DNA of 64,000 nucleotides from assembly GCA_044238935.1 (NCBI GenBank), contig JBIICI010000001.1, forward strand, positions 68,441 through 132,440, in the 5' to 3' direction. The position numbers were made by a program, and so were the translations under genes. This document shows positions 17,766 through 56,272 of the stretch, piece after piece. How positions within the stretch are numbered: the first letter of the stretch is position 1; the number at the start of each line of letters is the position of its first letter. Origin of the DNA: Gemmobacter sp. (GTDB lineage: Bacteria > Pseudomonadota > Alphaproteobacteria > Micavibrionales > Micavibrionaceae). The notes beneath the pieces are model-generated. The model was not told the origin of the DNA and searched no databases. It saw only the letters and a program-made list of their open reading frames with translations.

Positions 17766-17787
17766 GTTTATATCGATCCTTTAAATG

Positions 17788-18603: not shown

Positions 18604-18634
18604 CTTTTTCGCTCTTTTTTAAATTTTCTGAAAG

Positions 18635-19258: not shown

Positions 19259-19260
19259 TG

Positions 19261-25073: not shown

Positions 25074-26765
25074 ATGAAACAAAAAATGCCCAAAGCAACA
25101 AAAGAGATCGATCTGAAAATCAGCTGGAAACAGAAAATGCAATCGATATTGAGTCGATTGAACGAAGGATGCTGCCGTTTTCCTTTTTATCATTGGATGA
25201 TGGGGCGCGGAAATATCCCTGCACAATTTTTGTTTTACCCCAATGATGGCCGCCAAGGCGACGCAGGGCGTGGGCGTTGGTTATGCAACAATGCCTTTGA
25301 TATGGATGGCGAACAATTAACATGGGTCAAGGGGGAATGGTTGCATGATGTGAACAAAGCCCCCTTATCGCATGGATGGTGTGACCATATTCATGGCTTT
25401 GCATGGTTGCGTGATTTGAAAGCCTTAGGCGGTGAAACAGCCCGTCAACAAGCCCGATTAATGATCGAAGATTGGATGCAGGTGAATAATCATTGGGATC
25501 CTTTGGTCTGGCACGCAGGCAGCGCTGGAAAACGGATTTTTAACTGGATCACGCAATATAATTTTTATGGCGCCAGCGCATCCGACGAGTTTCGGGATAA
25601 TTTGATCGCCAGTATTATGCGCCAAGCACGCCATATTAGTCGCTCTTTGAATGGCTCTTTATGGGGAATGGATGCGCTGTATGCCGCGGCAGGATTAATC
25701 ACGACAGGCGCCGTTTTCGAAGGGTGCGAACAATGGGTGGATCAAGGCGCCCGTTTTTTCACCAAACAAGCCGATCAGTTTATTTTAGAAGATGGACTGC
25801 CGAAAAGCCGCAATATACAGCATCTCTATCGTGCATTACGATTAATGAATGATTGCAGATTGATTTTACTACAAAGCAGCTATCCCGCGCCTATGGCATG
25901 GGATCCTATTTTCGAAAGGGGTCTGAATGCATTGCGCGCTTTGTTGTTGCCCGATGATAAATTACCCACCCTAAATGGCACACAAGAGGGCACAGCAGAA
26001 AGTTTTCGACGATTCAACGCACAATTTTCCCATCGCAGCAAACCTATTTTTTCCTTCCCGAATGGCGGTATGGAAAAAGTCCATCAGGGCAAAACAATCC
26101 TATGGGTTAATCGGGGGGATGTCGCCCCTTGGCCACAAGATATACATGCCCATGCCGCGCCCTTGGCGTTTGAGATGATGTATAACAAAGACCGTCTTTT
26201 TGTATCCAGCGGCACGCACCCTGTTTCAACAGAATGGGCGGAGGAAACACGGCAATCAAAATCTCATAACATGGTCACACTCAATGATCAAAATGCCTAT
26301 GATATTCGCCCTGATGGGCATATTAGCCGTCGTCCGTCTAAATTATGGTTACGCCGCACCGAATCCGATGACGGTGTTTTAATTCACGGGCATCATTCAG
26401 CCTATGAGCCTGTCAATGGCTATAGCCTTGATCGGTTTTTATTTGTCAATCAAGAGGGCGAAGATATTCGGGGAGAAGAGCGCTTTTCGCACGTCACAGA
26501 TACGCCACAACCACAAATGATTGTAGCAACATTTCATTTGCATCCTCGTGCGCTGGTGTCTTTGGTCAAAGATGATTCTGAGGCCATTATTAAGCTCCCC
26601 AGCGGTTCAGGATGGCGGTTTTATAAATCGGCTGGCAAACTCAGTATCGAAGATAGCCTCTATATTGGTCAGGGCTGTCATATTCGGAAAACAAAAAAAT
26701 TAGTGATCCGCGCAAAATTAGAAACAAAAGAAGCCAGCCTTAAATGGGCGCTGAAAAAAGAATAG
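25074..26765 (+). CDS. Heparinase II/III-family protein
   Basis: 563 aa. HAHAAPLAFEMMYNKDRLFVSSG and SHNMVTLND resemble the conserved His/Asn blocks of alphaproteobacterial heparinase II/III-like proteins. Confidence 0.6.
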   Translation: MKQKMPKATKEIDLKISWKQKMQSILSRLNEGCCRFPFYHWMMGRGNIPAQFLFYPNDGRQGDAGRGRWLCNNAFDMDGEQLTWVKGEWLHDVNKAPLSHGWCDHIHGFAWLRDLKALGGETARQQARLMIEDWMQVNNHWDPLVWHAGSAGKRIFNWITQYNFYGASASDEFRDNLIASIMRQARHISRSLNGSLWGMDALYAAAGLITTGAVFEGCEQWVDQGARFFTKQADQFILEDGLPKSRNIQHLYRALRLMNDCRLILLQSSYPAPMAWDPIFERGLNALRALLLPDDKLPTLNGTQEGTAESFRRFNAQFSHRSKPIFSFPNGGMEKVHQGKTILWVNRGDVAPWPQDIHAHAAPLAFEMMYNKDRLFVSSGTHPVSTEWAEETRQSKSHNMVTLNDQNAYDIRPDGHISRRPSKLWLRRTESDDGVLIHGHHSAYEPVNGYSLDRFLFVNQEGEDIRGEERFSHVTDTPQPQMIVATFHLHPRALVSLVKDDSEAIIKLPSGSGWRFYKSAGKLSIEDSLYIGQGCHIRKTKKLVIRAKLETKEASLKWALKKE

Positions 26766-33555: not shown

Positions 33556-34341
33556 TTAACGCAGTTGGTTGACGGTGCTCATCATTTCATCACTGGTGCT
33601 AATGACATTTGAATTCATCTCATAAGCACGTTGTGCGGTGATTAGATTTGTAATTTCTTCGACAACATTGACGTTGGAACTTTCAATTGATCCTTGTTGA
33701 ACACGGCCGAAATTCTCACTATTTGGATTGCCTAAGGTTGGGTTTCCTGAGGCCTCAGTTTCAGTTAGAAGATTATTTCCGATGGCTTCTAATCCTGTTG
33801 GGTTTGCAAAATTGGCGACTTGGATTTGCCCTAAATTTTGTAAGGCTGTCTGACCTGATAATTTTGCAAAAACTTGGCCACTTTCGTTAATATCGACGGA
33901 TACAGCATTGGCTGGAATCACAATATTGGGCAACATGCGCATGCCTTGGGAATTGACAATCTCTCCATCTTGATTCACTTGGAACACACCATTTCTGGTA
34001 TAGCCTGTTTCGCCACTGGGCAGTTCGACTTGGAAAAATCCATCTCCGATAATCGCAAGATCCATTGGGTTTTCTGTAACCTGAATGGGACCTTGTTCAT
34101 GGATACGATAAACAGCGGCGGTACGTACACCCAAACCAACCTGTAACCCTGATGGCAAAATATTGCCAACATCAGATCCCGTTGCACCAGGGCGACTTAG
34201 GTTTTGGTATAATAAATCGCGAAATTCTGCGCGGTTTCTTTTAAAACCTGATGTGCTCATATTCGCGATATTATTCGAAATTGTATCGACATTCAGCTGT
34301 TGCGCTAACATGCCTGTGGCACCGATATGAAGTGATCTCAT
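33556..34341 (-). CDS. flgG: Flagellar basal-body rod protein FlgG
   Basis: 261 aa with N-terminus MRSLHIGATGMLAQQLNVDTISNNIANMSTSGFK and C-terminus ..AQRAYEMNSNVISTSDEMMSTVNQLR. Confidence 0.9.
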   Translation of the reverse strand: MRSLHIGATGMLAQQLNVDTISNNIANMSTSGFKRNRAEFRDLLYQNLSRPGATGSDVGNILPSGLQVGLGVRTAAVYRIHEQGPIQVTENPMDLAIIGDGFFQVELPSGETGYTRNGVFQVNQDGEIVNSQGMRMLPNIVIPANAVSVDINESGQVFAKLSGQTALQNLGQIQVANFANPTGLEAIGNNLLTETEASGNPTLGNPNSENFGRVQQGSIESSNVNVVEEITNLITAQRAYEMNSNVISTSDEMMSTVNQLR

Positions 34342-34364
34342 AATATTATATCCTCATTTCTTTG

Positions 34365-35090
34365 TTAAACTTTTGCCAATTCTTGAATCATAGTACGTTG
34401 GCGGTCATGTTCGGTTTTCATTAAATTTTGTGCAGATTCATAATTTCTGGAAACCTCAATCATACGGGTCATTTCTGTGACCGGATTAACATTTGATCCT
34501 TCTAACATGCCATGCTGTACTGTTGTATTCACAGGCAGGTTTGTTCGTTGATCTGTTTTATATAAATTATTTCCAATGGGATCTAATTCTTGATAATTAT
34601 CAAATTCACTGATTCGAATACGCCCATGTCGTCCCACGGCACTGGTGACTGTTCCATCTTCAGAAACGGTGATTGTTCCTTGTGCCTCCGCAGGGATATT
34701 AATCGCGCCGCCGCCGTCCGCAGCCACTAAATCTCCGTCAACGGTAACCATTTGTCCCTGACCATTCACGGCAAAATTTCCGGCTCTTGTATAGTAAAAT
34801 TGACCGTCTTTTCCTTGGATTGTGAAATATCCGGGCCCTTGGACAGCGACATCCAATTGATTGCCTGTTTGAATCATTGATCCTGCGGCATTATTTTGGT
34901 ATTGCCCATAATCCAAAACCATGGATAAGGAATCTTTCATGCCTTCTGGTTTACTGAGATATTCTGAAAATATAACATTTTGACCGCGATAGCCCGTTGT
35001 GGTCATATTGGCAAGGTTATTTGCAATTGTATCCATTTGTTTTGATAAAGCAACTTGCCGAGATAAGCCGATAATGATAGAATTTTCCAC
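34365..35090 (-). CDS. flgF: Flagellar basal-body rod protein FlgF
   Basis: 241 aa with rod-protein N-terminus ..MDTIANNLANMTTTGYR.., located directly upstream of flgG. Confidence 0.85.
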   Translation of the reverse strand: MENSIIIGLSRQVALSKQMDTIANNLANMTTTGYRGQNVIFSEYLSKPEGMKDSLSMVLDYGQYQNNAAGSMIQTGNQLDVAVQGPGYFTIQGKDGQFYYTRAGNFAVNGQGQMVTVDGDLVAADGGGAINIPAEAQGTITVSEDGTVTSAVGRHGRIRISEFDNYQELDPIGNNLYKTDQRTNLPVNTTVQHGMLEGSNVNPVTEMTRMIEVSRNYESAQNLMKTEHDRQRTMIQELAKV

Positions 35091-38179: not shown

Positions 38180-39286
38180 CTAATCACACGAAGAAAATGG
38201 GGCGGTTTTTAACCCCTCACAATCTTTGAATAAACGCACAGCACATTTTTTGTATGTACATTTTGATCCACAAATCGAATCTGATTCGCTGTAGTTTTGT
38301 TTTGCTAATGCGTGATCAATCGCCTCTTTCAGCCCTTGGATAAATTTTGAGTTATCCATGACGGTGGATACGCGCGCAAAATGATGGATGCCCATATGCT
38401 CTGCCACTTCACGATATTCATCCTCAATTTCCACCAAGGTTTCAACATGTTCACTGACAAAAGCATGGGGGTAAATCACCACGGCTTTTTGATCGTTAGC
38501 AACTTTTTGTAACGCCTCTTCGGTGGAGGGGCCAATCCATTTTAACGGCCCCACACGGCTTTGATAACAAATTTGCCAATCTAATGGCTGACCTTGGAGT
38601 AAATCCCCAATCCGTAAGGCTAATAAATCCGCCATTTTTTGCGCGCTTTGTTCGCATTGATGTTGATATGGATCACCGGCTTTGATAATTTTTTCAGGTA
38701 ATCCATGCGCTGAAAACAGCATACGCGGCAAAGCTTTTGCCTCCTTTGCCATCGCGCGATATGTTGTTTCAATATGATCCAATGAGGCTTGCAAAAACCC
38801 ATCTGCATAGGGGTAACAGCAAATCAATTTTGTCGGAATTTTCGTCTTTTTATTCTGCATCAAATTTTGCCATTCCTGCACTGATGATCCCGTGGTGGTG
38901 GTTGAAAATTGGGGGTACAGGGGTAATAAAATAATTTGCTCCATTCCATCAGCGATGACTTGGTCAATCACTGCATCTGCCCGTGGGTGCCAATAACGCA
39001 TGGAAACATACACTTTAAAATTCTCAGGCAAAATCGCTTGCAGTGCATCGGCTTGTTTTTGTGTATTGGCAAGCAATGGCGAACAGAATCCTAATTTCGC
39101 ATAGCTTTCCAACGCTTCGGCTTTTGATCGTTTATTTGCAATCAAACTGGCAATTAAAAACCGAATCGGCTTTGGCGCACCAATGATATTTTTATCCATA
39201 AAGAAATTCATCAAAAACGGCTTAATCGACTCCTTACGATCGGGCCCACCAAGGTTTAAGAGGATAATAGCGGTTTTTTTCTGCAT
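38180..39286 (-). CDS. hemH: Ferrochelatase
   Basis: 368 aa with AIILLNLGGPD and LFSAHGLPEK motifs and a Cys-rich C-terminus (C..C....C), possibly an Fe-S ligand set. Confidence 0.9.
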   Translation of the reverse strand: MQKKTAIILLNLGGPDRKESIKPFLMNFFMDKNIIGAPKPIRFLIASLIANKRSKAEALESYAKLGFCSPLLANTQKQADALQAILPENFKVYVSMRYWHPRADAVIDQVIADGMEQIILLPLYPQFSTTTTGSSVQEWQNLMQNKKTKIPTKLICCYPYADGFLQASLDHIETTYRAMAKEAKALPRMLFSAHGLPEKIIKAGDPYQHQCEQSAQKMADLLALRIGDLLQGQPLDWQICYQSRVGPLKWIGPSTEEALQKVANDQKAVVIYPHAFVSEHVETLVEIEDEYREVAEHMGIHHFARVSTVMDNSKFIQGLKEAIDHALAKQNYSESDSICGSKCTYKKCAVRLFKDCEGLKTAPFSSCD

Positions 39287-40320
39287 TATTTTATTTTCCG
39301 TAATGTATTAATAACGTAGTTCACATGCTCAGGATTGGTCAAACGATCAACGCCATGGCCTAAATTTAAAATATGGCGATGGGGATCTAAAGTTTCAAGT
39401 AAGGTTTTTAATCGTGCCTTCAACGCATCACCCCCTGCCAACAGGGCGGCTGGGTCAAGATTGCCCTGCACAGGCATAATCTCTTGCCAAGATTTCATCA
39501 TGTCCACAGGCACATTATGATCACATGCAATCGCTGTAATGCCTGAATTTTGAATGTAATCTTGATATAAAAATCCTGCGCCTTTTGGTAAGCCAATAAT
39601 GGGCATCTTTGGAAATTCAGATTTTATCGCCGCACATATTTTTGCCGCGGGTTTAATCACCCAACGCTGAAATTCTTGTTCATCCAATAGACCTGACCAG
39701 CTATCAAATAATTTAACAGCCTCCACCCCTGCTTTAATTTGGTTTTTTAAATAAAGGATTGTCGCATCAGTTACAAAATCGACAAGCTGTTGGAATTTTT
39801 CAGGATTTTGCATGGCAGCTTGACGGACATAGAGAAAATCTTTGCTTCCCCCCCCTTCCATCATATAGCAAATCACCGTCCACGGCGCACCTGCAAAACC
39901 AATATGGGCGGTTTGATGAAATTCTTCTTTATCCAAAGCCTCACGCACACCACTGACGGTTTGATAGACAGGATTTAAAATCGAATCAAATTGATCATAA
40001 GATAAAATCTCTTTCCAATTATCCAAAGTAATGGGTTTTAAAGAGGGGCCTTTGCCGGATTCAAACCAGACGTCTTGACCCAGCGCGTGGGGGATCACCA
40101 AAATATCACTGAATAAAATCGCCCCATCCATTTCAAAGCGGCGAATCGGTTGCATGGTAATTTCAATGGCGAGTTTTGGATTATACACCATTTCCAAAAA
40201 ACCACCTGCCTCAGTACGCAAAGCCCGATATTCAGGCAAATATCGCCCTGCTTGCCGCATCATCCAAATCGGACGGCGTGCAGGAATTTTTTGGGTTAAG
40301 ACAGATATTAACGGTTTCAT
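39286..40320 (-). CDS. hemE: Uroporphyrinogen decarboxylase
   Basis: Start moved to the ATG at 40320 (MKPLISVL..). Signature RPIWMMRQAGRYLPEY is present. Its stop overlaps the hemH ATG by 1 nt. Confidence 0.93.
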   Translation of the reverse strand: MKPLISVLTQKIPARRPIWMMRQAGRYLPEYRALRTEAGGFLEMVYNPKLAIEITMQPIRRFEMDGAILFSDILVIPHALGQDVWFESGKGPSLKPITLDNWKEILSYDQFDSILNPVYQTVSGVREALDKEEFHQTAHIGFAGAPWTVICYMMEGGGSKDFLYVRQAAMQNPEKFQQLVDFVTDATILYLKNQIKAGVEAVKLFDSWSGLLDEQEFQRWVIKPAAKICAAIKSEFPKMPIIGLPKGAGFLYQDYIQNSGITAIACDHNVPVDMMKSWQEIMPVQGNLDPAALLAGGDALKARLKTLLETLDPHRHILNLGHGVDRLTNPEHVNYVINTLRKIK

Positions 40321-40362
40321 AAGAATTTCAAGATTAGAATGAGGAAAGATTTTAAGGATCAT

Positions 40363-40754
40363 ATCGTATAAAAAATGATTCTTACAATCCCTTAATTACG
40401 CCCTGAAATTTTACAGTCCTTAAATAATATTTAATTTATTTAAAGAAATTGTTGTTCTTTGTAGGGGGTGTGGATAATGGGGATAATTTTTATCCCTGAT
40501 TTTATCCCCAAATTTATCATCTTGAAAAATCCATAGAGTCAAAGAGTTAAAATTTTTATCCCGATCATGGGTGTAAATTTTATCAACGATCCATAAATGT
40601 ATAATCAGCTTCATATTTTGTTTATGAACTGTGTGTAAGATGATCATCGATATACAGGACGATTTATCCCTTGGAAAGGTCACAGGCTTATCCACAAAAC
40701 CGTCCCCAATTTTTTTAAAACCATAATGCAAGATGCGGATCTTAAAATAAGAAT
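40363..40754. other. Probable chromosomal replication origin (Cori-type oriC upstream of hemE)
   Basis: Two perfect DnaA boxes lie in inverted orientation: TGTGGATAA at 40469-40477 and TTATCCACA at 40688-40696. At least 5 TTATCCC-type boxes are present (40478-40486 rc, 40490-40498, 40502-40510, 40556-40564, 40664-40672). There is an AT-rich stretch at 40420-40460, a TTAA-N7-TTAA (CtrA-type) site at 40420-40434, and GANTC sites at 40377-40381 and 40536-40540. Confidence 0.7.
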
Positions 40755-41378
40755 ATGATTTTTCACAAAGACTTTAAACGCCTTCCCACCAATGATTTAT
40801 CCATCATATGGCCACAGGTGCAGAAATATTTTTCTGAATTACCCGATTTAAATCAAGATTTGGTCGTTTTTGGACGAGATGTTGCCTTTTATCCAGATTA
40901 TAAAATCTTGGAAATTGCCTCTCAACAAACATTACCTGCAACGGTTCATTATGTTTTATATCATAAAGAAAAAAATCATTTTGTGCGTTTAGATTGGTCA
41001 ATTGATGCGATTTTATCGTTAAATCAAATTGCCCCCCTGAATTTAAATGATGATAATATTTTAGATTATGTTGAATATTATTACATGACCACCACATCGG
41101 CGCACGGCATGTTAGCATTGATCAATAATATTGACGATATTATTTGGAACGAAGATCCCCCCTTACAGGTGCGCCGTGAAATCATGAAAATGATTATTCC
41201 ATTGACGATTACAGAATTTACCCATGATGGATATTGGATGTTACGCGCAAGCTTTTTACACCGTCAATCTTTGTTCCAAGCAGATTTGAAATTACATTCA
41301 GATGGCACAATCATCAGCTATAATCACGAACTTATCCTTGAGGATTTACCCGTGATGGATATTATTTTGGGGCAATAA
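40755..41378 (+). CDS. Hypothetical protein (origin-adjacent ORF)
   Basis: 207-aa ORF with no motif I recognise. It occupies the position of the conserved hypothetical gene that flanks Cori opposite hemE in Caulobacter and Rickettsia; homology was not verified. Confidence 0.35.
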   Translation: MIFHKDFKRLPTNDLSIIWPQVQKYFSELPDLNQDLVVFGRDVAFYPDYKILEIASQQTLPATVHYVLYHKEKNHFVRLDWSIDAILSLNQIAPLNLNDDNILDYVEYYYMTTTSAHGMLALINNIDDIIWNEDPPLQVRREIMKMIIPLTITEFTHDGYWMLRASFLHRQSLFQADLKLHSDGTIISYNHELILEDLPVMDIILGQ

Positions 41379-41578
41379 TTGTTTAGTTATTCAAATATTT
41401 TTTCAACCTTTTATCAAGCATTTTTTGAACACAAAGGGGTCTGTTAGAAAATCAAGGAACATAATGTTCTTTATCTTTTTTTAGTGCTCTTTAAGGATTA
41501 GAAAGAGAAAAAGATATAGACAAAAATTATTTAATACCTTATGGTGATTTCCTATATAAAATAAGGAGGGAAATTACC

Positions 41579-41923
41579 ATGAGACCAAAAATTATAAAGA
41601 AATTTGGATTAGAATTATCTGTGCAAAGAGTCTATGATTTAGAGAGTAAAAAACGACAGTTTGCTGTTAGTTTTCATTTTAATGAAGCTGGACAAACATT
41701 TATTGGAATTGACAAAAATCTACGAAGTGCAGTAGAGAATTTTACTGAAGCCTGTGTTGTAGGACGCTTTCTAAACAAAGCCCCTATAGACATCTATGAA
41801 ATTTTTTCTTGTAGCGAAGTAGCTGTACCAAGAAACAATATCTTTGGTTATCAAATCCGTAAATTTTTTGGTCTCCCTTACAAAGACCCAAGAGATAAAA
41901 TGAAATTCTTTTATCATTCCTAA
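41579..41923 (+). CDS. Hypothetical protein
   Basis: 114-aa ORF preceded by a strong Shine-Dalgarno (AAGGAGGGAAATTACCATG). It is AT-rich with no recognisable motif. Confidence 0.4.
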   Translation: MRPKIIKKFGLELSVQRVYDLESKKRQFAVSFHFNEAGQTFIGIDKNLRSAVENFTEACVVGRFLNKAPIDIYEIFSCSEVAVPRNNIFGYQIRKFFGLPYKDPRDKMKFFYHS

Positions 41924-41963
41924 AACGAAGAGAAGAACAGACCCCAAGCCTAAAATCTCAACC

Positions 41964-43504: not shown

Positions 43505-44707
43505 ATGAATATCCATGAATATCAGGCAAAAGAACTCTTGAAACACTATGGCGTTGCTGTTCCCGTTGGCTATCCTGCCCTAACGGTTGATGAGGCCGTG
43601 GCCGCTGCCCAAAAACTAACAACCCCTGTTTTTGTGGTGAAATCCCAAATTCATGCAGGCGGTCGTGGGGCAGGGCATTTTAAAAATAATCCCACAGGCA
43701 AAGGCGGTGTTCGCGTTGTTAAATCAGTTGATGAAGTCAAAGCTGCCGCCCAAGAGATGTTAAACCAAATCTTGGTGACCAAACAAACAGGGGCTGAGGG
43801 CAAAGAAGTTCAGCGTTTATATATCGAAGAAGGCTGTAACATTGCCCGTGAACTCTATTGCGGTATTTTACTGGATCGCGCCACATCGCGCGTGACCTTT
43901 ATGGTTTCCACCGAAGGCGGTATGGATATTGAAGAGGTCGCCCATCACCACCCTGAAAAAATTATCAAGGTTGCTATTGATCCTGCCACAGGGATGCAAG
44001 CCTTTCATGCGCGCAAATTAGGCTTTGCTTTGGGATTATCCGAACAAGCCATGAAAAAATCTGTCAAATTTATGTTGGCGATGTATAAAGCCTTTGTGGA
44101 TTTAGATGTGTCTATCTTGGAAGTCAACCCGTTGGTGATTACCGCAGATGAAGATGTCATTGCCCTTGATGCAAAGATGAATTTTGATGATAATGCTTTG
44201 TTCCGTCATCCCAATGTTTTGGCACTGCGTGATATTACAGAAGAAGATGAAAATGAGCGCGAGGCCACAGATAACGAATTATCCTATGTGCGTTTAGACG
44301 GCAATATTGGCTGTATGGTCAATGGCGCAGGCTTGGCGATGGCAACGATGGATATTATTAAACTCAGCGGCGGCGAGCCTGCAAACTTCTTGGATGTTGG
44401 CGGCGGCGCCACCAAAGAACGCGTGACAAAAGCCTTTAAAATTATTCTATCTGATCCCAACGTAAAGGGCATTTTGGTGAATATTTTCGGCGGCATTATG
44501 CGCTGTGATATTATTGCTGAGGGCGTCATTGCTGCTGCGAAAGAAGTGTCCTTAAACGTCCCCTTAGTCGTCAGATTGGAAGGCACAAATGTGGAATTGG
44601 GTAAAGAAATTTTAGCCAAATCAGGCCTACCGATTGTCTCTGCGGATAATTTGGCGGATGCAGCGGTTAAGGTTGTGGCAGCAACAAAACAGGCCATGGC
44701 GGCGTAA
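43505..44707 (+). CDS. sucC: Succinate--CoA ligase (ADP-forming) subunit beta
   Basis: 400 aa with N-terminus [12 protein letters not shown] and ..[18 protein letters not shown].. Confidence 0.97.
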
Positions 44708-44721
44708 AATAGGATTATGAA

Positions 44722-46416
44722 GTGGATCAATCTGCATTAAAAAATCTCCTTCATCAACTTATCGCAAAAGGCGAAAATGAAACGGTTGATTTTAAGAGAA
44801 CAGCCGATACAGATAAGATTGGTCGTTATTTTTCGGCACTTTCTAATGAAGCTAATCTTCAAAATCTTGATACAGCTTGGTTAATTTTGGGGGTTGATGA
44901 TAAAAGTCGTGATCTAATCGGATGTTCGGCTTATCTTGATAATGAGAGTCGTACAGAGCTTAAGAAAAAAATTGCACAAAACTTATCACCACCTTCTATG
45001 AATTTCAGGAATATCCACATTCTTGAAATAGATCAAAAAAAGATCATTTTGCTCTTTGAGATTCCACCTGCTCCTCTTGGCATCCCTGTATTTTGGAAAA
45101 AAGTTGCATATGCGCGTAGTGGCGATAGTATTGATAATCTTTCAATAGGCAAGCAGGATCAAATTCGAAACCAAGAACCAATAGATTGGTCATCTGAAAT
45201 TGTACCTGAGGCAACATTAGAAGATTTAGATGAAGAAGCCGTACAAAAAGCACGACACATTTTCGCTCAGAAAAACCCTAATTTTAATGATAATGATGTA
45301 AAAGATTGGGCAACTCAGATTTTCTTGGATCGTGCCCATCTTACGCGTCAAGGAAAAATCACAAAATCAACTTTACTATTATTGGGAAAAGCAGAATCAT
45401 CATCTTTGCTTTCTCCGCATCCTGCACGAATAACATGGAAATTGGAAGATCACATTCCAGATTATGCACATTTTGATCCTCCGTTTCTTTTATCTGTTGC
45501 TAAACTCTATCAAAAGATCCGTAATCGCCAAATCAGTCTTTTACCAAGAAACCAGCTTTTATCCGTTCAGATACAGCAATATGACCAAAAAGTTATATTA
45601 GAAGCTCTTAATAATTGTATCGCGCATCAGGATTACAGAAAAAATGCTCGTATTATCGTTCATGAAAAACCAGATAAACTGATTTTTATAAATTCTGGAT
45701 CGTTTTTTGATCGACACCCTAATGATTACATAGAGGGAGATTCAATTCCCCTGAAATACCGTAATTCTTTTCTAACAAAATCAATGAGTGTATTAGGGAT
45801 GATTGATACAGTCGGATACGGTATTTATCAAATCCATAAAATACAACGACAACGGCATTTACCGATGCCAGATTATGATTTATCCGAGGCTGACAAGGTT
45901 TCTTTAACAATTTATGGCAATGTAATTGATAGCGCATATAGCCAGCTTTTGATGGAAAATACAGATCTTTCACTCTTGGAAATTATCTCTCTTGATCGGC
46001 TACAGAAAAAAAGACCTATTTCTGCTGAAATGACTGCTCAACTCAAACGTAAAGGGCTTATAGAAGGAAGAAAGCCAAATTTTTATATTGCCCCTTCTAT
46101 TGCTAAAACCAAAGAAGATCGTACGCGATATATGATGGAGCGTTCGATTGATGATAATCACTATAAAAAACTTATTTTAGATTATCTAAAAAAATTCAAG
46201 GCGGCCTCAAAAAATGATTTAGACGACTTTTTAAAGCTAAAAATCAGCGATCGCTTAAATGATGCACAAAAAATAAAGAAAATCGCTAACTTATTAACTA
46301 GCCTAAGGCGTGAGGGCGTAATTTATAATAATGGCAGTAAAAAATACCCATCTTGGAAAATATCAAAAAATGATAAATTGCAGAATAAAAGAGGCGAATT
46401 GCAGAATAAAAAATGA
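44722..46416 (+). CDS. AlbA_2 (Schlafen-type) + HATPase_c_4-like putative DNA-binding regulator ('RecG-like' in many annotations)
   Basis: 564 aa with a GTG start 14 nt after the sucC stop. N-terminal pattern: ..ENETVDFKR..IGRYFSALSNEANL..AWLILGVDD..; central pattern: ..EALNNCIAHQDYRKNARIIVHEKPDKLIFINSGSF.. The C-terminus is basic, possibly a wHTH-like region. Confidence 0.62.
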   Translation: MDQSALKNLLHQLIAKGENETVDFKRTADTDKIGRYFSALSNEANLQNLDTAWLILGVDDKSRDLIGCSAYLDNESRTELKKKIAQNLSPPSMNFRNIHILEIDQKKIILLFEIPPAPLGIPVFWKKVAYARSGDSIDNLSIGKQDQIRNQEPIDWSSEIVPEATLEDLDEEAVQKARHIFAQKNPNFNDNDVKDWATQIFLDRAHLTRQGKITKSTLLLLGKAESSSLLSPHPARITWKLEDHIPDYAHFDPPFLLSVAKLYQKIRNRQISLLPRNQLLSVQIQQYDQKVILEALNNCIAHQDYRKNARIIVHEKPDKLIFINSGSFFDRHPNDYIEGDSIPLKYRNSFLTKSMSVLGMIDTVGYGIYQIHKIQRQRHLPMPDYDLSEADKVSLTIYGNVIDSAYSQLLMENTDLSLLEIISLDRLQKKRPISAEMTAQLKRKGLIEGRKPNFYIAPSIAKTKEDRTRYMMERSIDDNHYKKLILDYLKKFKAASKNDLDDFLKLKISDRLNDAQKIKKIANLLTSLRREGVIYNNGSKKYPSWKISKNDKLQNKRGELQNKK

Positions 46417-46576: not shown

Positions 46577-47458
46577 ATGGCCGTTTTAGTTGGAAAAAAC
46601 ACAAAATTAATTTGCCAAGGTTTTACAGGCGCACAGGGCACGTTCCATTCTGAACAAGCCATTGCCTATGGCACGAATATGGTGGGGGGTGTAACCCCCA
46701 ATAAAGGCGGGACAAAGCATTTGAATTTGCCTGTATTCAATACAGTGCATGAGGCTGTGCATGTCACAGGCGCAAATGCAACGGTCATTTATGTACCGCC
46801 AGCCTTTGCAGCGGATGCAATTTTGGAAGCCATTGATGCCGAAATTGAACTGGCAGTTTGTATCACCGAAGGAATCCCTGCCCTTGATATGGTGCGTGTT
46901 AAACGTGCTTTGCAAGGCTCAAAAACGCGCCTTGTTGGCCCAAACTGCCCCGGTGTGATTACCCCCGGTGAATGTAAAATCGGCATTATGCCCGGTCACA
47001 TCCATAAACGCGGCAGCGTGGGCATTGTTTCCCGTTCAGGCACATTGACGTATGAGGCCGTGGCACAAACAGGCGCGGTCGGCTTGGGGCAATCCACCTG
47101 TATTGGGATTGGTGGCGATCCAGTGAACGGCACGAACTTTATTGATTGTTTGGAATTATTCCTCAATGACCCTGAAACTGAATCCATCTTAATGATCGGT
47201 GAAATCGGCGGTACTGCGGAGGAAGAAGCGGCAGAATTCTACAAAGCATCCAAGATCAAAAAACCCATCGCGGGCTTTATCGCAGGGGCAACGGCGCCTG
47301 AAGGCAAGCGTATGGGACATGCTGGTGCGATCATTTCAGGTGGACAAGGCACAGCAGAATCAAAATTTGAGGCCATGCGCCGCGCGGGATTCGTTGTTTC
47401 CAACAGCCCCGCAGGATTGGGAACAGCGGTGCTGGAAGCCATTAAAAAGGCAGCCTAG
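46577..47458 (+). CDS. sucD: Succinate--CoA ligase subunit alpha
   Basis: 293 aa with ..[35 protein letters not shown].. and the catalytic-His region ..MGHAGAII.. Confidence 0.97.
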
Positions 47459-50129: not shown

Positions 50130-51041
50130 TTAAAAAAGTTGTAAAATCATACAACGTGCGGAACCGCCGCCATGTTTTTCGATTGTATCTAAAGGTGCAG
50201 AAACAATATTATCAATATATAATTTCAGCGTGTCTTTTTGAGGCAATGTTAGGGATTGTTCAGCCTGTTGGGACATTACCAATAATCGTGCACCCTGTGC
50301 ATTTTCAATTTCTAATGCATTCCCACAAAAAGATAGAATTTGATCCATGCTCAGGTCAATAATGATATGGGTTTGCGATAGGCGACCAATAACGCGCTCA
50401 CGATCATCGGGGGCAATTGATTCCGTACATAGCCCCGCATATCCTGTGCCAATATACATGATAACATTCGTATGATAAACCTGCCCACCTGTGTGATCAT
50501 AGGCAGAAAAAGCAATGGTTTCATATCCATAGACTTCCCCCCATTGCGCAAATAAACGCGCATCCAGTCGGGGGGATATACAGCCATAGGCAACACGGTG
50601 AATATGATCAATAATAATCGTGCCCGTGCTTTCTAGGATCTGTCCCTGTTGTTCATAGGTCGATAGATCACCAATGATTTGGTAACGACGATTTAACCAG
50701 TCAATAATAGCAGGACGACGTTCCAAACGACGATTTTCTGCCATCATGGGATATAAAATATACCCGTGATTTATGGGATCATCATGGGTCGATACCCAAT
50801 TATTGGGGAATAAATCATCAGGGCTGTCGGCTTGACCTAAAAAAGTTGTCACATTCGCGCCTGCATTGACCAATGCATCACGGAAATTCCGGAATTCTTG
50901 TCTAGCTTGCTGCTGAATCTTGATAATATCGGCATCATGAACATGATGTTGATAATGATTGCTGGCGGCTGTTTGGGGATTGCAGCCAAAGGCAACGGGT
51001 TCGATCATCAGCAAATCACTGGTGGACTGACGAACGCGCAT
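50130..51041 (-). CDS. Amidinotransferase/arginine-deiminase-superfamily protein (CtlX-like)
   Basis: 303 aa. The C-terminal catalytic-Cys motif ..HGGGSARCMILQLF is typical of the guanidino-group-modifying enzyme fold. Confidence 0.5.
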   Translation of the reverse strand: MRVRQSTSDLLMIEPVAFGCNPQTAASNHYQHHVHDADIIKIQQQARQEFRNFRDALVNAGANVTTFLGQADSPDDLFPNNWVSTHDDPINHGYILYPMMAENRRLERRPAIIDWLNRRYQIIGDLSTYEQQGQILESTGTIIIDHIHRVAYGCISPRLDARLFAQWGEVYGYETIAFSAYDHTGGQVYHTNVIMYIGTGYAGLCTESIAPDDRERVIGRLSQTHIIIDLSMDQILSFCGNALEIENAQGARLLVMSQQAEQSLTLPQKDTLKLYIDNIVSAPLDTIEKHGGGSARCMILQLF

Positions 51042-51046
51042 CGTTT

Positions 51047-52000
51047 TTATGCCACCATGCGTGATGAGCTATGGCTGCGGTTAAACCATTGATAGGTTTG
51101 ATTGAGCCCTTCGGATAAACCAATTTGTGGCATCCATCCTAAGGCACGAATGCGTGATGAATCCATCAATTTTTGTGCTGTGCCATCGGGTTTGGAACGG
51201 TCAAATTTCAAAACGCCTTGATAGCCAACAACCGCTTTGATCAATGCGGCTAAATCACCGATTGGTAAATCATATCCTGCACCAATATTAAGCGGTGCAG
51301 CATCATCATATTTCAACAAAGCCAAATGCACCGCATCCGCCAAATCATCCACATGTAAAAATTCACGACGTGGAACGCCGCTGCCCCAGATTAAAACTTC
51401 TTTTTCGCCACTATGCATGGCTTTGTGCATATTTAACATCATAGCAGGGATCACATGGCTGCGTTCTGATTCGAAACGGTCATATTGACCATATAAATTA
51501 CAGGGCATCACGGATATAAAATTGCAATTATGTTGGGCACGATAGGCTTGGCAGAGTTTAATGCCTGCAATTTTGGCAATTGCATAGGCCTCATTTGTTG
51601 GCTCAAGTGCTCCTGTCAATAATGAATCTTCGGTGATTGGATTGACAGCATTTTTAGGATAAATACAGGATGATCCCAAATACACTAATTTTTCAACCCC
51701 CATATGATGGGCATTATCGATGATATTTTGGGCGATGGCTAAATTATCAAACAAATATTGTGCAGGGTATAGTTGATTATCCAAAATACCCCCCACACGC
51801 CCTGCGGCCATCAAGATAATATCGGGCTTATGATCTTGCATCCACGCCTTTACAGCGGTTTGATCACGCAAATCAAGTTTTGATTTTGATACCGTCAAAA
51901 GTTCAACATCTTCACGCATAAAACGGCGGCACAATGCTTGCCCCACCATACCATGGTGACCTGCAATCCAGATTTTTTTACCTTTAATGAGGAGGCTCAT
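51047..52000 (-). CDS. fcl: GDP-L-fucose synthase
   Basis: 317 aa with Rossmann N-terminus IWIAGHHGMVGQAL, catalytic YAIAK, and a position next to gmd. Confidence 0.9.
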   Translation of the reverse strand: MSLLIKGKKIWIAGHHGMVGQALCRRFMREDVELLTVSKSKLDLRDQTAVKAWMQDHKPDIILMAAGRVGGILDNQLYPAQYLFDNLAIAQNIIDNAHHMGVEKLVYLGSSCIYPKNAVNPITEDSLLTGALEPTNEAYAIAKIAGIKLCQAYRAQHNCNFISVMPCNLYGQYDRFESERSHVIPAMMLNMHKAMHSGEKEVLIWGSGVPRREFLHVDDLADAVHLALLKYDDAAPLNIGAGYDLPIGDLAALIKAVVGYQGVLKFDRSKPDGTAQKLMDSSRIRALGWMPQIGLSEGLNQTYQWFNRSHSSSRMVA

Positions 52001-52054
52001 AGACTTAAAAGAGAACCTTTTTTTGAGTGTATTTCAGAATGAAGCAAGAATAAG

Positions 52055-53080
52055 TTATTTTGACAATAATTTTAAATCAAAATCAACCATTTCTTTTATA
52101 AGATCATGAAAACTATATTGCGGTTTCCATTTTAAAATGTCAAAGGCTTTTGTTGCATTTCCACATAAGAAATGCACATCATTGGCACGATAATGAATTT
52201 TATCAACGATAATGCGCGGTTTATTTGTGGCGATTTCAATGCCGCGCTCTTGTAATCCTGTGCCTTCCCACCGTAAGGGCATGCCTGCATAATCAAAAGC
52301 ATAGGCGATCATATCGCGCACGGAATAGGATTTTCCTGTTGCTAAAACAAAATCATCGGGGTTATCGTGCTGTAAAATGCGCCACATGCCGTCTATATAA
52401 TCTTTGGCGTGCCCCCAATCACGGCGGGCGTCTAAATTCCCAATCGTGACGAAATCTTGCATATTTGATTTGATTCGCGCGATGGCCTTGGTGATTTTTC
52501 GGGTCACAAATTCTTCGCCCCGTAACGCACTTTCGTGATTAAATAAAATACCGTTACTGGCAAATAGACCATAAGCATGGCGATAGGTGACACTCATCCA
52601 ATAGCCATGCAGCTTTGATACCGCATACGGGCTGCAGGGACGAAAAGGCGTGTTTTCATCCTGCGGCGCAGGGACATTGCCGAAAATCTCAGAACTAGAG
52701 GCTTGGTAAAATCGGGTTTGATCAATCATTTTTAACAAACGAATGGCTTCTAACAGATTCGTTGTGCCGCAAACATTGGTTTGTGCTGTTAATATTGGAT
52801 TTTCAAAACTCACTCCCACATGACTTTGTGCCGCAAGATGATAAATTTCATGTGGTTGGATAGAATCCAATATCCGCAACAGCCCTGATAAATCGCCTAA
52901 ATCCCCTGTGTGAAGATGGAAATCAGGGTGCGCTCCTAAATCATTTAATCGTTCGGAATCATGAACCGAAATACGGCGAATCAATCCATGCACTTGGTAT
53001 TGTTTGCGCAGCAAAAAATCAGCCAATAGAGCGCCATCTTGACCATTAACCCCTGTGATAAAGGCGATTTTTTGCGTCAT
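52055..53080 (-). CDS. gmd: GDP-mannose 4,6-dehydratase
   Basis: 341 aa with AFITGVNGQDGALLADFLL, ..QASSSEIFG.. and YAVSKL. Confidence 0.93.
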   Translation of the reverse strand: MTQKIAFITGVNGQDGALLADFLLRKQYQVHGLIRRISVHDSERLNDLGAHPDFHLHTGDLGDLSGLLRILDSIQPHEIYHLAAQSHVGVSFENPILTAQTNVCGTTNLLEAIRLLKMIDQTRFYQASSSEIFGNVPAPQDENTPFRPCSPYAVSKLHGYWMSVTYRHAYGLFASNGILFNHESALRGEEFVTRKITKAIARIKSNMQDFVTIGNLDARRDWGHAKDYIDGMWRILQHDNPDDFVLATGKSYSVRDMIAYAFDYAGMPLRWEGTGLQERGIEIATNKPRIIVDKIHYRANDVHFLCGNATKAFDILKWKPQYSFHDLIKEMVDFDLKLLSK

Positions 53081-53098
53081 GCAAGCAATTTTCCCTAA

Positions 53099-54973
53099 TT
53101 ATTCTTCGTCAATAATCTTTTCGGACTCTTCTTGTGGTGGCGTTGGTTGTTCTTGTATCGCTTGCTTTGGGGCAATTGTGTTCTCTGTATCTAAATCTGA
53201 GGCTTCATCAGCGCTATCCTCCGCATTTGTTTCCTCAGGTGTTTTGACGGGAGCAGGGGTCTGAGGTTTGTTTTTCAAACTTTCCTGTAATTTTTGTTGC
53301 AATGCCAAATCTTCTGCCGCTTGTTTTTCGGCTTTTTCTTGGGCTTTTTTCGCTTGTTTGGCTTTAATTTTATCTTCCTTGGCTTTACGTTTTGCCTCGG
53401 CTTTTTCTGTTTTTGCCTTTAATTCCAGATTCTGAGAAATCATAATCGCGCTGTCAGGCTTTAGAGATCCTTCAAAAAGCGGTGTGTTAAAGGGGCTTAA
53501 GATTCCACTGAAAACCTGATCGCCTGTGCGGAAAATCTTAAGATCTTGTAAGATCACATCATCCATATAATACATGTTTATGTGACCCCGTTTATTGTTC
53601 GAAAGCTCAACGCCCCCAACATGCACGCCTAAGACTTTATCATACGGATCCATAGAAAGATCGCGCTCTTCGGCTGTGAAATCATCGACATAACCTGTAA
53701 TCCCATATTGTAAATGATCAACAATCGTGTCAAAGCGCAAAGATAGATCATTGCTGTTACGAATACGAATGCCTGATTTCGCATTTTTGCTGATAATATT
53801 ATGCCATGTTGTGTTGTGTGGGCTTTCGTAAAATGTTAAGCCATCCCCTTCGTTGGATTCCAATCGGTTAAAGGCGATAATATTATTATGACACTGACGG
53901 TCTAACATGATTCCGCTTCCGTGATTATGGTGGCTGTGATTGTTAAAAATCCAACTATCATTCACTTCACGGGAGATAATAATACCGTGCTTTTTATGCG
54001 TCCCTGTAATATGGTTATAGGCAATGATTAAGCGTTTTGAACGGTCATGGGGGTCAATCCCATAAATAATGTTATTGATATAATTATTGCCGATAATGGC
54101 AATATCTTCGGCTTCGTAACTATAGAATCCGAAATATAAATCTTCGAATGTATTATTAATAACCCATCCTTTGGCAGGAGGAACTTCGGGCTGTGTTTCT
54201 GCGATTTTACTGGTTGATGTATAGCTGATCCCGAATGATTTTGTTCCTGAATAGCCTAAATGCGATATTTTATTATCCGCTAAATAGCTTTCTGATCCGC
54301 CCCATCCGTTGAAAAAAGGTCTGAAATTCTTTTTCTCAACAAAAACAGCAGGTTTGTTTTCAGTGCCAATCCACCCTGCTAAGGTTGAATTGATCAAATA
54401 AAACTTCCCAAAATTACTGATAAACGCACCACGATCTGACCATAGATGAATCGGGCGATCAGCATCGACAATTTGTAAAGACGCCTGCGCCCCAACAATA
54501 ATCGGCATTTTGATATTATAGGCCAGATCCGTTTTTTCCAATAAATTGGGATCATTAACGGTGGCAATCAACGAATCCAACGTATAATTTCCATTGGTGA
54601 TATTGATAAATTGAGGGTAATCTGTGCCTTGGAACTTCGCAAATGCAGGTAAAAAGCGACTGAATGTCATTTCAAAGAAGATTCTGGAGGAGGCCATATA
54701 TTCCAAAAACACAACCCCTTCAGATGGTGCAGGTAATTTTGCGCGCACAGCTTGGGTCGTAAAGCCTGAAATATTGGGCAGCTTTGGTGCTTTTTCAAAT
54801 AAATTCACCGCTGCACTGGTGGTAAGATCGTATTTCTTTTGCGCATGTTCAGGGTCATCTTGGGCGGTTTGTGCTTTGAAATCATAATATTTCTCTAAAT
54901 AGGGTACAGATAGCACCCCTAGGCTACAAAGCGCAACGCAGGAAAAAACAATGATATAACGCTTGATGTTCAT
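53099..54973 (-). CDS. Right-handed beta-helix protein, mannuronan C5-epimerase (AlgG)-like, with a K/A/E-rich C-terminal tail
   Basis: Start moved to the ATG at 54973 (MNIKRYIIVFSCVALCSLGVLSV). The block NNIIYGIDPHDRSKRLIIAYNHITGTHKKHGIIISREVNDSWIFNN contains the DPHD motif I associate with AlgG. The ~120-aa tail reads ..KAKTEKAEAKRKAKEDKIKAKQAKKAQEKAEKQAAE.. Confidence 0.68.
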   Translation of the reverse strand: MNIKRYIIVFSCVALCSLGVLSVPYLEKYYDFKAQTAQDDPEHAQKKYDLTTSAAVNLFEKAPKLPNISGFTTQAVRAKLPAPSEGVVFLEYMASSRIFFEMTFSRFLPAFAKFQGTDYPQFINITNGNYTLDSLIATVNDPNLLEKTDLAYNIKMPIIVGAQASLQIVDADRPIHLWSDRGAFISNFGKFYLINSTLAGWIGTENKPAVFVEKKNFRPFFNGWGGSESYLADNKISHLGYSGTKSFGISYTSTSKIAETQPEVPPAKGWVINNTFEDLYFGFYSYEAEDIAIIGNNYINNIIYGIDPHDRSKRLIIAYNHITGTHKKHGIIISREVNDSWIFNNHSHHNHGSGIMLDRQCHNNIIAFNRLESNEGDGLTFYESPHNTTWHNIISKNAKSGIRIRNSNDLSLRFDTIVDHLQYGITGYVDDFTAEERDLSMDPYDKVLGVHVGGVELSNNKRGHINMYYMDDVILQDLKIFRTGDQVFSGILSPFNTPLFEGSLKPDSAIMISQNLELKAKTEKAEAKRKAKEDKIKAKQAKKAQEKAEKQAAEDLALQQKLQESLKNKPQTPAPVKTPEETNAEDSADEASDLDTENTIAPKQAIQEQPTPPQEESEKIIDEE

Positions 54974-55096
54974 CGAAAAAATACCCAAAAAATTTAAGGT
55001 TGCAAATAATCTCTTTATCTTTCATACAGATAAACAGGGGCAATAGACAAGTTTTTTCTTGCTTTTATCTGTATAAATATTTTACTAAACACTCTT

Positions 55097-56272
55097 ATGC
55101 GTATTAAAAAAAGATCATATCGTTTTTTGGGAATCAGCTTGATGCTTTTGCTGTTTACAGCAATGACAGGGTGTGGATTGTTTCATATGCATAATGCCGA
55201 TGCTTCTGATAATTTACCTGTTTTGATCAATCCTTTTGTTTTAAAACAACCCCCAATTATTCCCCATGATATAAATGATTTCCATTGTGCGGCAGCCCCC
55301 CCTGTGATTCGCGATTTGGAATATTCCAGCGTGTACACAGATCGGTCAGAGGGCGTGTCGAAAGTGGATGAAAAAGCACAAAAACGCTATCGCAAGGAAA
55401 TGAAGCCGATTAGTAAATATGAGGAATATATTGTTCGCCTTGCCAATCGTCATGCCGCAACGGGATTAAACAAAACGCCCTATGGCGATTGTGCCTTACA
55501 ATGGATGGCGGATTGGGCACAGCAAGATGGTTTTTTAGGCCGCAGCAATGAGCTAGGGCAGGCCGTGCGGAAATGGACATTAGGCAGCATCGCCGCAGCT
55601 TATTTACAAATCCAAGAAAAACCACAAATCAATCTTGATACCAGCGCATCAGATCCTGAAAATCAAAATCTGCCATTAAATCAAACAGCGAATCACCATT
55701 TTGTTCAAAAATGGATTCATGATTTGGCATACCAAGTCAAAAAAGATTACTCAACCCACGCCGACGCCAAAAGCCGCAATAACAACCATCTTTATTGGGC
55801 AGCATGGAGCGTGATGGCCTCTTCCATTGCTTTAAATGATCATGATTTATATGATTGGGCGCTAAAAAAAGCGCACCAAGGCATTAACGCCATTACACCA
55901 GAGGGCACATTGCCCTTGGAAATGGCGCGTGAATATCGCGCTTATCATTATCACACATTTGCAATGCTGCCCTTGGTAATGATGGCGGAGGCCTCCACCG
56001 TCAATGGGGCGCATTTATATACGGAAAAAGGCTCACGCCTAAGTTTATTGGCGGATCGTATTTTATCATCCGTCGATAATATCGATTATTTCGAACAGGC
56101 CACAGGCAAAGATCAAGATTTAAAAAGCTGCATGACCCCTGCACAATTTGCATGGCTGCCTGTTTATGCCGCGCGTCACCCTGAAATGGATTTATCCCGC
56201 TTTCAAAACCGCTTCTCCCCCCCTTATTTACGCCGCATTGGTGGGGATATGTCGCTGTTTTTTGGGCAATAG
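55097..56272 (+). CDS. Alginate lyase (AlgL, PL5)-like protein, probable lipoprotein
   Basis: 391 aa with lipobox ..LFTAMTG-C. ..SRNNNHLYWAAWSVMASSIAL.. matches the AlgL NNHSYWAAW signature. Confidence 0.7.
   Translation: MRIKKRSYRFLGISLMLLLFTAMTGCGLFHMHNADASDNLPVLINPFVLKQPPIIPHDINDFHCAAAPPVIRDLEYSSVYTDRSEGVSKVDEKAQKRYRKEMKPISKYEEYIVRLANRHAATGLNKTPYGDCALQWMADWAQQDGFLGRSNELGQAVRKWTLGSIAAAYLQIQEKPQINLDTSASDPENQNLPLNQTANHHFVQKWIHDLAYQVKKDYSTHADAKSRNNNHLYWAAWSVMASSIALNDHDLYDWALKKAHQGINAITPEGTLPLEMAREYRAYHYHTFAMLPLVMMAEASTVNGAHLYTEKGSRLSLLADRILSSVDNIDYFEQATGKDQDLKSCMTPAQFAWLPVYAARHPEMDLSRFQNRFSPPYLRRIGGDMSLFFGQ

Follow-up and report, generated by a model that had tools for sequence, protein, structure and literature searches.

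A hemE-adjacent intergenic spacer as the probable DnaA-dependent chromosomal origin of a sparsely sampled alphaproteobacterium

Where does replication start in the chromosome represented by contig JBIICI010000001.1? We address this question for a 64-kb window of that contig, meaning the whole stretch of 64,000 nucleotides that was analyzed; it is part of the replicon, and all window-level counts and shuffles given below refer to it. The element in question is a 392-bp spacer at positions 40363-40754, which forms the gap between hemE and a gene encoding a 207-amino acid (aa) protein, with both genes diverging from the gap (Table 1). A preliminary description of this DNA had put forward the spacer as a hemE-adjacent chromosomal origin of replication (oriC), and the proposal is borne out here. 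We conclude that the spacer is very probably a DnaA-dependent chromosomal oriC, with DnaA binding, strand melting, and firing predicted from its motif content, from a DnaA-box cluster that has no rival in the window, from an unwinding module kept in relatives, and from the occurrence of the core of that module at accepted origins between dnaA and dnaN as well as between maf and rho in other bacteria. So read, the spacer is an ordinary annotation, built like origins across bacteria, and not a new kind of element.

To analyze the DnaA boxes, we assigned scores of 3, 2, and 1 to sites with zero, one, and two mismatches, respectively, summed these per 392-bp window, and used 500 shuffles that keep local composition as the null. 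Only two perfect DnaA boxes are present in the 64 kb, and both are found in the spacer in inverted orientation (TGTGGATAA at 40469-40477 and TTATCCACA at 40688-40696). These are accompanied by two one-mismatch and three two-mismatch boxes within the same 392 bp, plus two TTATCCC words that match at 6/9 positions. The spacer thereby scores 13, and the top 392-bp window (40459-40850) reaches 15, compared with 8 for the next real window. In the shuffles, the maximum anywhere in the window averaged 7.2 and was never above 11, while the shuffled spacer block itself scored 1.8 on average and 7 at most. The TTATCCC word is found five times in the spacer, at 40480 (reverse strand), 40490, 40502, 40556, and 40664, and 22 times across the window versus 10.7 expected from shuffles; in addition, 22 nt of the left module recur 90 bp further along the spacer. 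The DnaA-box cluster is thus well above chance and without rival in 64 kb, and comprises the at least three to four boxes above chance that are looked for in an oriC. The two inverted perfect boxes and five TTATCCC words reported previously are all present, and the expectation that no equally dense cluster lies elsewhere holds for these 64 kb (8 versus 13-15).

The hemE-proximal end of the spacer harbors the features of an unwinding module. Read on the minus strand toward hemE, the sequence is TTATCCCCA TTATCCACA CCCC CTA CAA AGA ACA ACA ATT TCT TTA AAT AAA TTA AAT ATT ATT TAA GG, that is, a tandem pair of boxes followed by a GC cluster, a DnaA-trio, and a predicted AT-rich DNA unwinding element (DUE). 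Positions 40406-40459 have the lowest stability within the spacer and contain the sixth least stable 40-mer in the window, in line with the AT-rich segment (40420-40460) singled out in the preliminary description. The DUE lies 5 bp from the perfect box at 40469-40477, so that the spacer has the AT-rich element beside a box that is expected of an oriC. A comparable arrangement is known as the basal unwinding system (BUS), which consists of DnaA-boxes, a short spacer, DnaA-trios, and AT-rich DNA (PMC8287927; PMC10721633). The rule for its recognition calls for a co-oriented box pair with ≤2 and ≤4 mismatches, a box-trio spacer of ≤16 bp (PMC8287927), and ≥3 consecutive trios (NAN, 3'-GAT-5' consensus) on the strand reading TGTGGATAA. 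Here, TTATCCCCA (one mismatch) abuts TTATCCACA (no mismatches) on the minus strand from 40486 to 40469, the GC-bearing spacer is within 16 bp, and AT-rich DNA extends beyond the trio. Between the upstream box and the first trio there are 13 bp, which is the most frequent spacing reported (PMC8287927), and the proximal box is separated from the trio by 4 bp (CCCC). The likeness to the BUS as described for B. subtilis (DnaA-boxes 6/7 plus trios; Richardson/Pelliciari/Murray) therefore extends to the abutting co-oriented boxes, the 4-bp GC cluster, the strand of the first trio, and the AT-rich DNA; unlike the BUS, the spacer has one in-frame trio rather than ≥3 and is not located between dnaA and dnaN.

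The strand convention for trios was taken from the statement on a 5'-tail that encodes the DnaA-trios (PMC8287927), from the C. difficile example CACC TAC TAC TAT TAC (PMC7561715), and from the dnaA-dnaN modules recovered in this work. By this convention, a run of five A-centred triplets beside the boxes (TAC AAA GAA CAA CAA) lies on the opposite, wrong strand and hence was rejected and not counted as trios. We also set aside, as worth no more than a mention, a T7 run 13 bp downstream of the 40688 box as a second candidate for unwinding; this site on the right of the box is far less AT-rich and lies at the opposite end from the conserved module.

We next consider how far the locus is conserved, using fetched loci (L numbers) from relatives that were reached via hemE or, for metagenome loci, via an alignment of the 207-aa family. 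In L081 and L082, a ~205-aa gene is followed by a 360-414 bp spacer and then by hemE-hemH-hemJ-rho; on its other side, L082 carries two DUF6782 genes, DUF299 (PF03618), aroE, and coaE. The synteny of the relatives can therefore be written as coaE-aroE-DUF299 ... 205-aa gene, spacer, hemE-hemH-hemJ-rho, relative to which the right flank in our window is rearranged; Cori of Caulobacter and the origins of Rickettsia and Wolbachia have this neighborhood as well (PMC1914354; PMC6393856). The ~205-aa proteins are homologous to the 207-aa protein of the window (29-30% identity, 38 invariant columns), which makes the flanking gene pair a conserved one, and homologues are found in the same position in L081 (4152-4769), L082 (5029-5640), L135, L206, L207, and L211. 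The spacers of the relatives have diverged overall (58% mean column identity), and their alignment at the hemE-proximal end reads TAATCCCCA-N5-CACA-GC-CTA(CTA..)-AT-rich. This same module is found at the hemE-proximal end of the hemE spacers of L081, L082, L084, L135, L142, and L160. It is also present, with two to four CTA trios, in all four protein-fetched loci that have that spacer end on the contig (L206, L207, L208, and L211); since these were fetched by the neighboring protein alone, this check is independent of any DNA pattern. The module is present in all nine relatives with a readable hemE-proximal spacer end. A search of metagenome contigs for the exact 28-nt core gave no match.

To place this core in the context of other origins, we scanned 185,579 reference genomes with a 26-nt pattern derived from the window, TWATCCCCA-N5-CACA-N3-CCTAC, kept 80 matches, and checked the identities of their flanking genes with Pfam. 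The largest grouping, 32/80, lies between dnaA and dnaN, with dnaA always upstream and the module pointing to dnaN, and is drawn from Actinomycetota, Enterococcus, Lacticaseibacillus, Saccharibacteria, Polyangiaceae, and others; the core in the window is nearly identical to the dnaA-dnaN modules of Actinomycetota, lactic acid bacteria, and Saccharibacteria. A further 19/80 are found at the maf-rho spacer or beside hemE, nearly all of them in alphaproteobacteria, mainly Rhodobacterales and Micavibrio-like metagenome-assembled genomes (MAGs). The remaining 29/80 lie elsewhere and include several from Chloroflexota with clear CTA CTA trios, near which neither dnaA nor dnaN was found; the others resemble chance matches in genes. 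Because the context of a match was not selected for, sequences of this form appear to be mostly origin unwinding modules.

The maf-rho loci of Rhodobacterales (L087-L157) are instructive in this regard. They share with the spacer the tandem core TAATCCCCA-TTATCCACA-GGCC-CTA followed by AT/T-rich DNA, and the neighborhood dnaQ-coaE-aroE-maf, spacer, rho-mnmE, which is the same ancestral one as that of the spacer. Unlike in the window, hemE and hemH are not adjacent, no boxes are found near their hemE, and their trio region, when shifted by one base, reads ATA ATC ATC ATC. It thus appears that in the maf-rho loci, the position of the origin was kept while the hem genes moved. The tandem-box core between maf and rho was observed in L087-L089, L094, L097, L127, L131, L132, L140, L143, L145, L149, L152, L157, and L163, mostly Rhodobacterales, and L089 has aroE-, coaE-, and dnaQ-like open reading frames (ORFs) after maf and an mnmE-like ORF after rho. 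Among the matches listed, many loci of Hyphomicrobiales (Brucella, Mesorhizobium, Phyllobacterium, and relatives) have their strongest DnaA-box cluster directly upstream of hemE, which is not the case in Rhodobacterales or Bradyrhizobium.

These features suggest a mechanism of initiation that follows known lines. DnaA would occupy the two consensus boxes at the ends of the array (40469-77 and 40688-96) and fill the weaker TTATCCC-type boxes between them, with the tandem pair at 40469-40486 nucleating a DnaA-ATP oligomer. Growing past the 4-bp GC cluster, this oligomer would then reach the plus strand of 40420-40463 and melt the AT-rich element, at which the helicase would be loaded and from which forks would depart both ways; hemE and the 207-aa gene would be transcribed outward from the same spacer. 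An origin at this position would fix the replichore orientation, coordinate zero, and the reference for peak-to-trough growth-rate estimates in a poorly sampled lineage, and the 26-nt tandem-box core can serve as an inexpensive query when origin unwinding modules are sought across phyla. The finding does not change what is known of how origins work.

Several observations weigh against an origin in the spacer. The ≥3 trios within 16 bp called for by the BUS rule are lacking, in that the longest run starting at ≤12 nt is one trio, and the first run of three, as read by eye, sits 38 bp from the box. A single in-frame trio, as in the window, is likewise all that is found in 13/19 of the modules in maf-rho or hemE context, so that this shortfall lowers the standing of the spacer as a canonical BUS member and does not set it apart from its class. 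An nhmmer profile made from the AT-rich part alone of 19 other modules in maf-rho or hemE context did not match the spacer, and the visual impression of sequence homology in the DUE is hence not supported. Only 64 kb of the replicon are visible, and family scans of these detect neither dnaA nor dnaN among the window genes, in agreement with the earlier caveat that dnaA lies outside; a second, stronger cluster elsewhere is therefore possible. The main item, however, is the GC skew. We modeled third-position G/C (GC3) with separate gene-strand and replication-side terms and with gene bootstraps, and found that the strand-corrected GC3 skew changes sign inside the window in the direction of an origin. 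The best fit places the switch 4-9 kb right of the spacer, at 44.7-49.9 kb (47.5 kb, log-likelihood +10.9), and assuming one at 40.5 kb brings no improvement over a model that lacks a switch (-0.5). The bootstrapped switch points have their median at 47.5 kb, and their 95% range, 33.5-63.6 kb, takes in the spacer, with 81% of them in 42-50 kb and 3% in 38-42 kb; at four-fold sites the signal is weak, with a gain of only 4.3. The offset rests on six ORFs at 40.7-47.5 kb, namely, the 207-aa gene, a doubtful 114-aa ORF, mntH, sucC, sucD, and a Schlafen/AlbA_2 gene, and sucC and sucD are highly expressed genes in which codon preference can mimic skew. The skew test is thus compatible with an origin in the spacer and does not support it. 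In the raw cumulative GC skew, the lowest point falls at ~24-25 kb, which we rejected as an origin, since there is a gene-strand switch and neither an intergenic gap nor a box cluster at that point, and a switch at 24.3 kb gives -13.3 log-likelihood versus none.

If the skew switch is taken at face value, the origin would lie within the window at about 44.7-49.9 kb. The gain at 47.5 kb over 40.5 kb and the concentration of bootstraps in 42-50 kb favor this placement, yet that region has no DnaA-box cluster (its best 392-bp score of 8 is within the shuffle range), its intergenic gaps of 110-350 bp have no perfect box, and the signal derives from the six ORFs named above, with sucC/sucD, a Schlafen-type insert, and a doubtful ORF among them, and is weak at four-fold sites; we regard an origin there as very unlikely. 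Somewhat less improbable, though still unlikely, is that the spacer binds DnaA for regulation or titration, either as a DnaA-controlled divergent promoter of hemE and the 207-aa gene or as a datA/DARS-like element, and that the origin is elsewhere, for example beside dnaA. A site of this kind has no need of a tandem-box, GC-cluster, and AT-rich unwinding module, let alone one that is kept in relatives and whose pattern falls at origin locations in 51/80 matches. The absence of dnaA from the window and the off-centre skew switch would be in keeping with such a site, as would the promoter-like hexamers in the spacer, but the latter number two versus 2.9 in shuffles, and the mapped alphaproteobacterial origin is hemE-linked and not dnaA-linked (PMC1914354).

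Two further readings deny the boxes any function in initiation. One takes the 103-aa ORF that overlaps the array as a real gene and the box-like motifs as its coding sequence, on the strength of 103 open codons and of one automatic gene call for this ORF on a metagenome contig. We consider this scarcely credible. The codon log-likelihood of the ORF is 0.010 per codon versus 0.222 +/- 0.086 for real genes, within the range of spurious frames (≤0.043 for antisense ORFs of ≥100 aa); it begins with TTG and is without homologues or a match in Pfam or NCBIfam, and gene callers placed no gene in the spacers of the relatives. The 103-aa ORF is non-coding, as had been suspected from the outset, so the spacer has the non-coding location expected of an oriC and a spurious gene call is removed. 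In the other reading, the boxes came together by chance in a divergent promoter region rich in A+T, where the background of TTAT-type words is raised. Shuffles at the spacer's own composition already allow for this background and remain far below the observed score (mean 1.8, maximum 7, versus 13), and conservation of the module across relatives is not expected of a coincidence, making this explanation every bit as remote as that of a coding sequence. We therefore return to the spacer as a probable DnaA-dependent oriC.

An origin at this position can be compared with those of other alphaproteobacteria. The Caulobacter origin, Cori, lies between hemE and a DUF299 gene, and the predicted origins of Rickettsia, Wolbachia, Ehrlichia, and Anaplasma are hemE-linked (PMC1914354; PMC6393856). 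Cori harbors two moderate G-boxes (T-to-G), five weak W-boxes, five CtrA sites, an IHF site, and five GANTC sites (PMC6393856, PMC4468827); CtrA sites are reportedly not seen in other alphaproteobacterial origins, except perhaps that of Rickettsia (PMC6393856; PMC4468827). Like the Cori/Rickettsia-type origins, the spacer is a divergent gap directly upstream of hemE, with a ~40-bp AT-rich stretch and several DnaA boxes, and with parAB and gidAB nearby, and the relatives keep the DUF299-aroE-coaE side. The preliminary term "Cori-like" is thus apt for the location and not for the motifs. In place of the weak G- and W-boxes of Cori, the spacer has two perfect TTATCCACA boxes and two 8/9 boxes, and the G-type box TGATCCACA is absent from the spacer. 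Its right neighbor is not the DUF299/COG1806 gene of Cori but the 207-aa gene, which lacks a Pfam or NCBIfam domain; the genes annotated in the window right of the spacer do not include DUF299, and in the relative L082 the DUF299 gene (PF03618) lies three genes further along.

The TTAA-N7-TTAA and the two GANTC sites taken previously as CtrA- and CcrM-type elements are indeed present, at chance level and with no CtrA or CcrM signal. Exact TTAA-N7-TTAA matches number two in the window versus 4.0 expected, and one in the spacer (P(≥1)=0.075 under its own composition); allowing up to one mismatch still yields one spacer site (P=0.69) rather than the several expected of CtrA control. The match at 40420-34 is thus at chance level and no evidence of such control. 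GANTC is found twice in the spacer versus ~1.2 from background (196 per 64 kb), that is, without enrichment, and a consensus scan for the IHF site WATCAANNNNTTR found none on either strand of 40300-40800. The window also contains a gene for a GcrA-like cell-cycle sigma-70 cofactor (4108-4797, plus strand; E = 1.6e-40, below the curated cut-off), which suggests that a CcrM/GcrA module exists in the genome although GANTC is not enriched at the origin. A limited literature search found no usable experimentally mapped hemE-linked origin outside Caulobacter. The origin of Sinorhizobium meliloti is said to have been mapped beside hemE.

In the oriC of E. coli, the inverted consensus boxes R1 and R4 stand at the ends and bracket weaker sites, with the DUE outside R1. 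The spacer has the same inverted end boxes and weak inner sites, its DUE adjoins the R1-like box on the outer side, and this box reads TGTGGATAA from the DUE side, so that its end-to-end arrangement is closer to E. coli oriC than to Cori. Other E. coli-type traits are not shared: GATC is found four times versus ~2.3 expected (378 per 64 kb), and there are no 13-mer repeats. Finally, E. coli oriC adjoins mnmG/gidA, whereas here mnmG is found at a distance of 19 kb, with no box cluster in its 83-bp upstream gap.

The single trio allows for a more specific and rather doubtful reading of the module: the lineage of the spacer may have kept the pan-bacterial anchor of tandem boxes and GC cluster and lost the DnaA-trio array, with the DUE being opened in some way other than by trio-guided filament growth. 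After the sole trio, an A-rich run, CAAAGAACAACAA, occupies the strand that normally bears T-centred triplets. With the array lost, opening of the DUE might rely on an accessory factor, for example the 207-aa protein, which is always encoded at the origin or, in locus L210, beside dnaN. Independently of how the DUE is opened, the 207-aa family (~205 aa) could be replication-associated, as in this clade its genes and hemE diverge on the two sides of the origin spacer; the member in L210 (2501-3118) is instead found directly downstream of a dnaN homologue. Family scans of the 207-aa protein reveal no Pfam or NCBIfam domain, and as the sole query against genome contigs it gave zero matches.

Table 1 Features of the hemE-adjacent spacer and its flanking genes, in order of position in the 64-kb window
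Feature	Coordinates	Strand	Basis or remark
hemH	38180-39286	- (after hemE)	Confirmed by family match
hemE (uroporphyrinogen decarboxylase), left flank	39286-40362	-	TIGR01464, 360 bits
TTAA-N7-TTAA inside DUE, chance-level match	40420-40434	.	Motif scan and shuffles
AT-rich DUE (predicted), about 88-90% A+T	40420-40463	.	Stability profile; adjoins tandem boxes
103-aa ORF, TTG start, judged a non-gene	40420-40731	-	Codon usage, no family match
Single canonical DnaA-trio (TAG on +, CTA on -)	40462-40464	+	Sole in-frame trio
GC cluster GGGG/CCCC between boxes and trio/DUE	40465-40468	.	Same 4-bp position as GGCC/CCCC in dnaA-dnaN modules
Perfect box TTATCCACA, DUE-proximal member of tandem pair	40469-40477	-	Box scan
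8/9 box TTATCCCCA, abuts perfect box in same orientation	40478-40486	-	Box scan
Weak box TTATCCCTG, 6/9	40490-40498	+	TTATCCC word scan
8/9 box TTATCCCCA	40502-40510	+	Box scan
7/9 box TTATCCCGA, within 22-nt repeat of 40473-40494 module	40556-40564	+	Repeat and box scans
7/9 box TTATCAACG	40580-40588	+	Box scan
7/9 box TTACACACA	40630-40638	-	Box scan
Weak box TTATCCCTT, 6/9	40664-40672	+	TTATCCC word scan
Perfect box TTATCCACA, far end, in inverted orientation to 40469-77 and 210 bp apart from it	40688-40696	+	Box scan
Gene of conserved 207-aa protein, right flank	40755-41378	+	Codon score 0.281

As to the flanking gene hemE, its homologues align from residue 16 onward among the matches listed. 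The true start is probably the second methionine, Met15 (ATG at 40320), where, as judged from these alignments, the N-terminus MKPLISVL...RPIWMMRQAGRY would start; with this start, the non-coding spacer would be 434 bp long, reaching 40321. An Rfam scan of the window detected one tRNA only and zero matches inside the spacer. The closest hemE homologue among 5.8 billion proteins has 57% identity, named matches are from an "Alphaproteobacteria bacterium" or from Micavibrio MAGs, and matches in genome contigs are ≤48% identical among those listed. The host lineage is thus a sparsely sampled alphaproteobacterium whose nearest database relatives are labeled Micavibrio or Alphaproteobacteria.

The genes parB-parA-rsmG-mnmG, previously placed about 20 kb to the left, are found at 16794-21159, 19-23.5 kb left of the spacer. 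Inside rsmG, beside parA/parB and ~21 kb from the spacer, are the parS-like palindromes CGTTTCACGTGAAACG and TGTTTCATGTGAAACA (18956-18971 and 19235-19250); the window has three parS-like matches versus 0.33 expected. The parS-like sites and parAB 21 kb to the left fit an origin-proximal region. With respect to skew, the flagellar rod genes flgG and flgF (33556-35090, minus strand) have coding-strand GC3 skews of -0.31 and -0.17, respectively, opposite to their neighbors; they may have been inverted locally or have had a different history.

To the right of the 207-aa gene, the 114-aa ORF (41579-41923, plus strand) has a codon score of -0.103 and no family match, and the 585-bp low-GC gap between the 207-aa gene and mntH (41379-41963) may be entirely non-coding. 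Between sucC (43505-44707) and sucD (46577-47458) lies the gene of a 564-aa protein with Schlafen/AlbA_2 and HATPase_c_4 domains (44722-46416, plus strand), which from its low GC content and codon score of 0.063 looks like a foreign insertion that splits the sucCD operon. Also compositionally atypical are a 754-aa ORF without a family match (59157-61421, plus strand; a 34% GC stretch, codon score 0.036) and a small RNHCP-domain gene (23487-23822, minus strand; codon score -0.206). Two adjacent large genes of the DotA/TraY family (type IVB secretion; 5015-8002 and 8020-11205, minus strand) adjoin a secretin-like gene of the MshL/PilN type (11293-12873, minus strand), a combination that hints at a host- or prey-associated lifestyle. 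Finally, a sugar/polysaccharide cluster at 50130-56272 encodes a GDP-mannose dehydratase, a GDP-fucose synthase, an AlgG-like mannuronan epimerase (below cut-off), and an alginate-lyase-like protein, and a heparinase II/III-like protein is encoded at 25074-26765.

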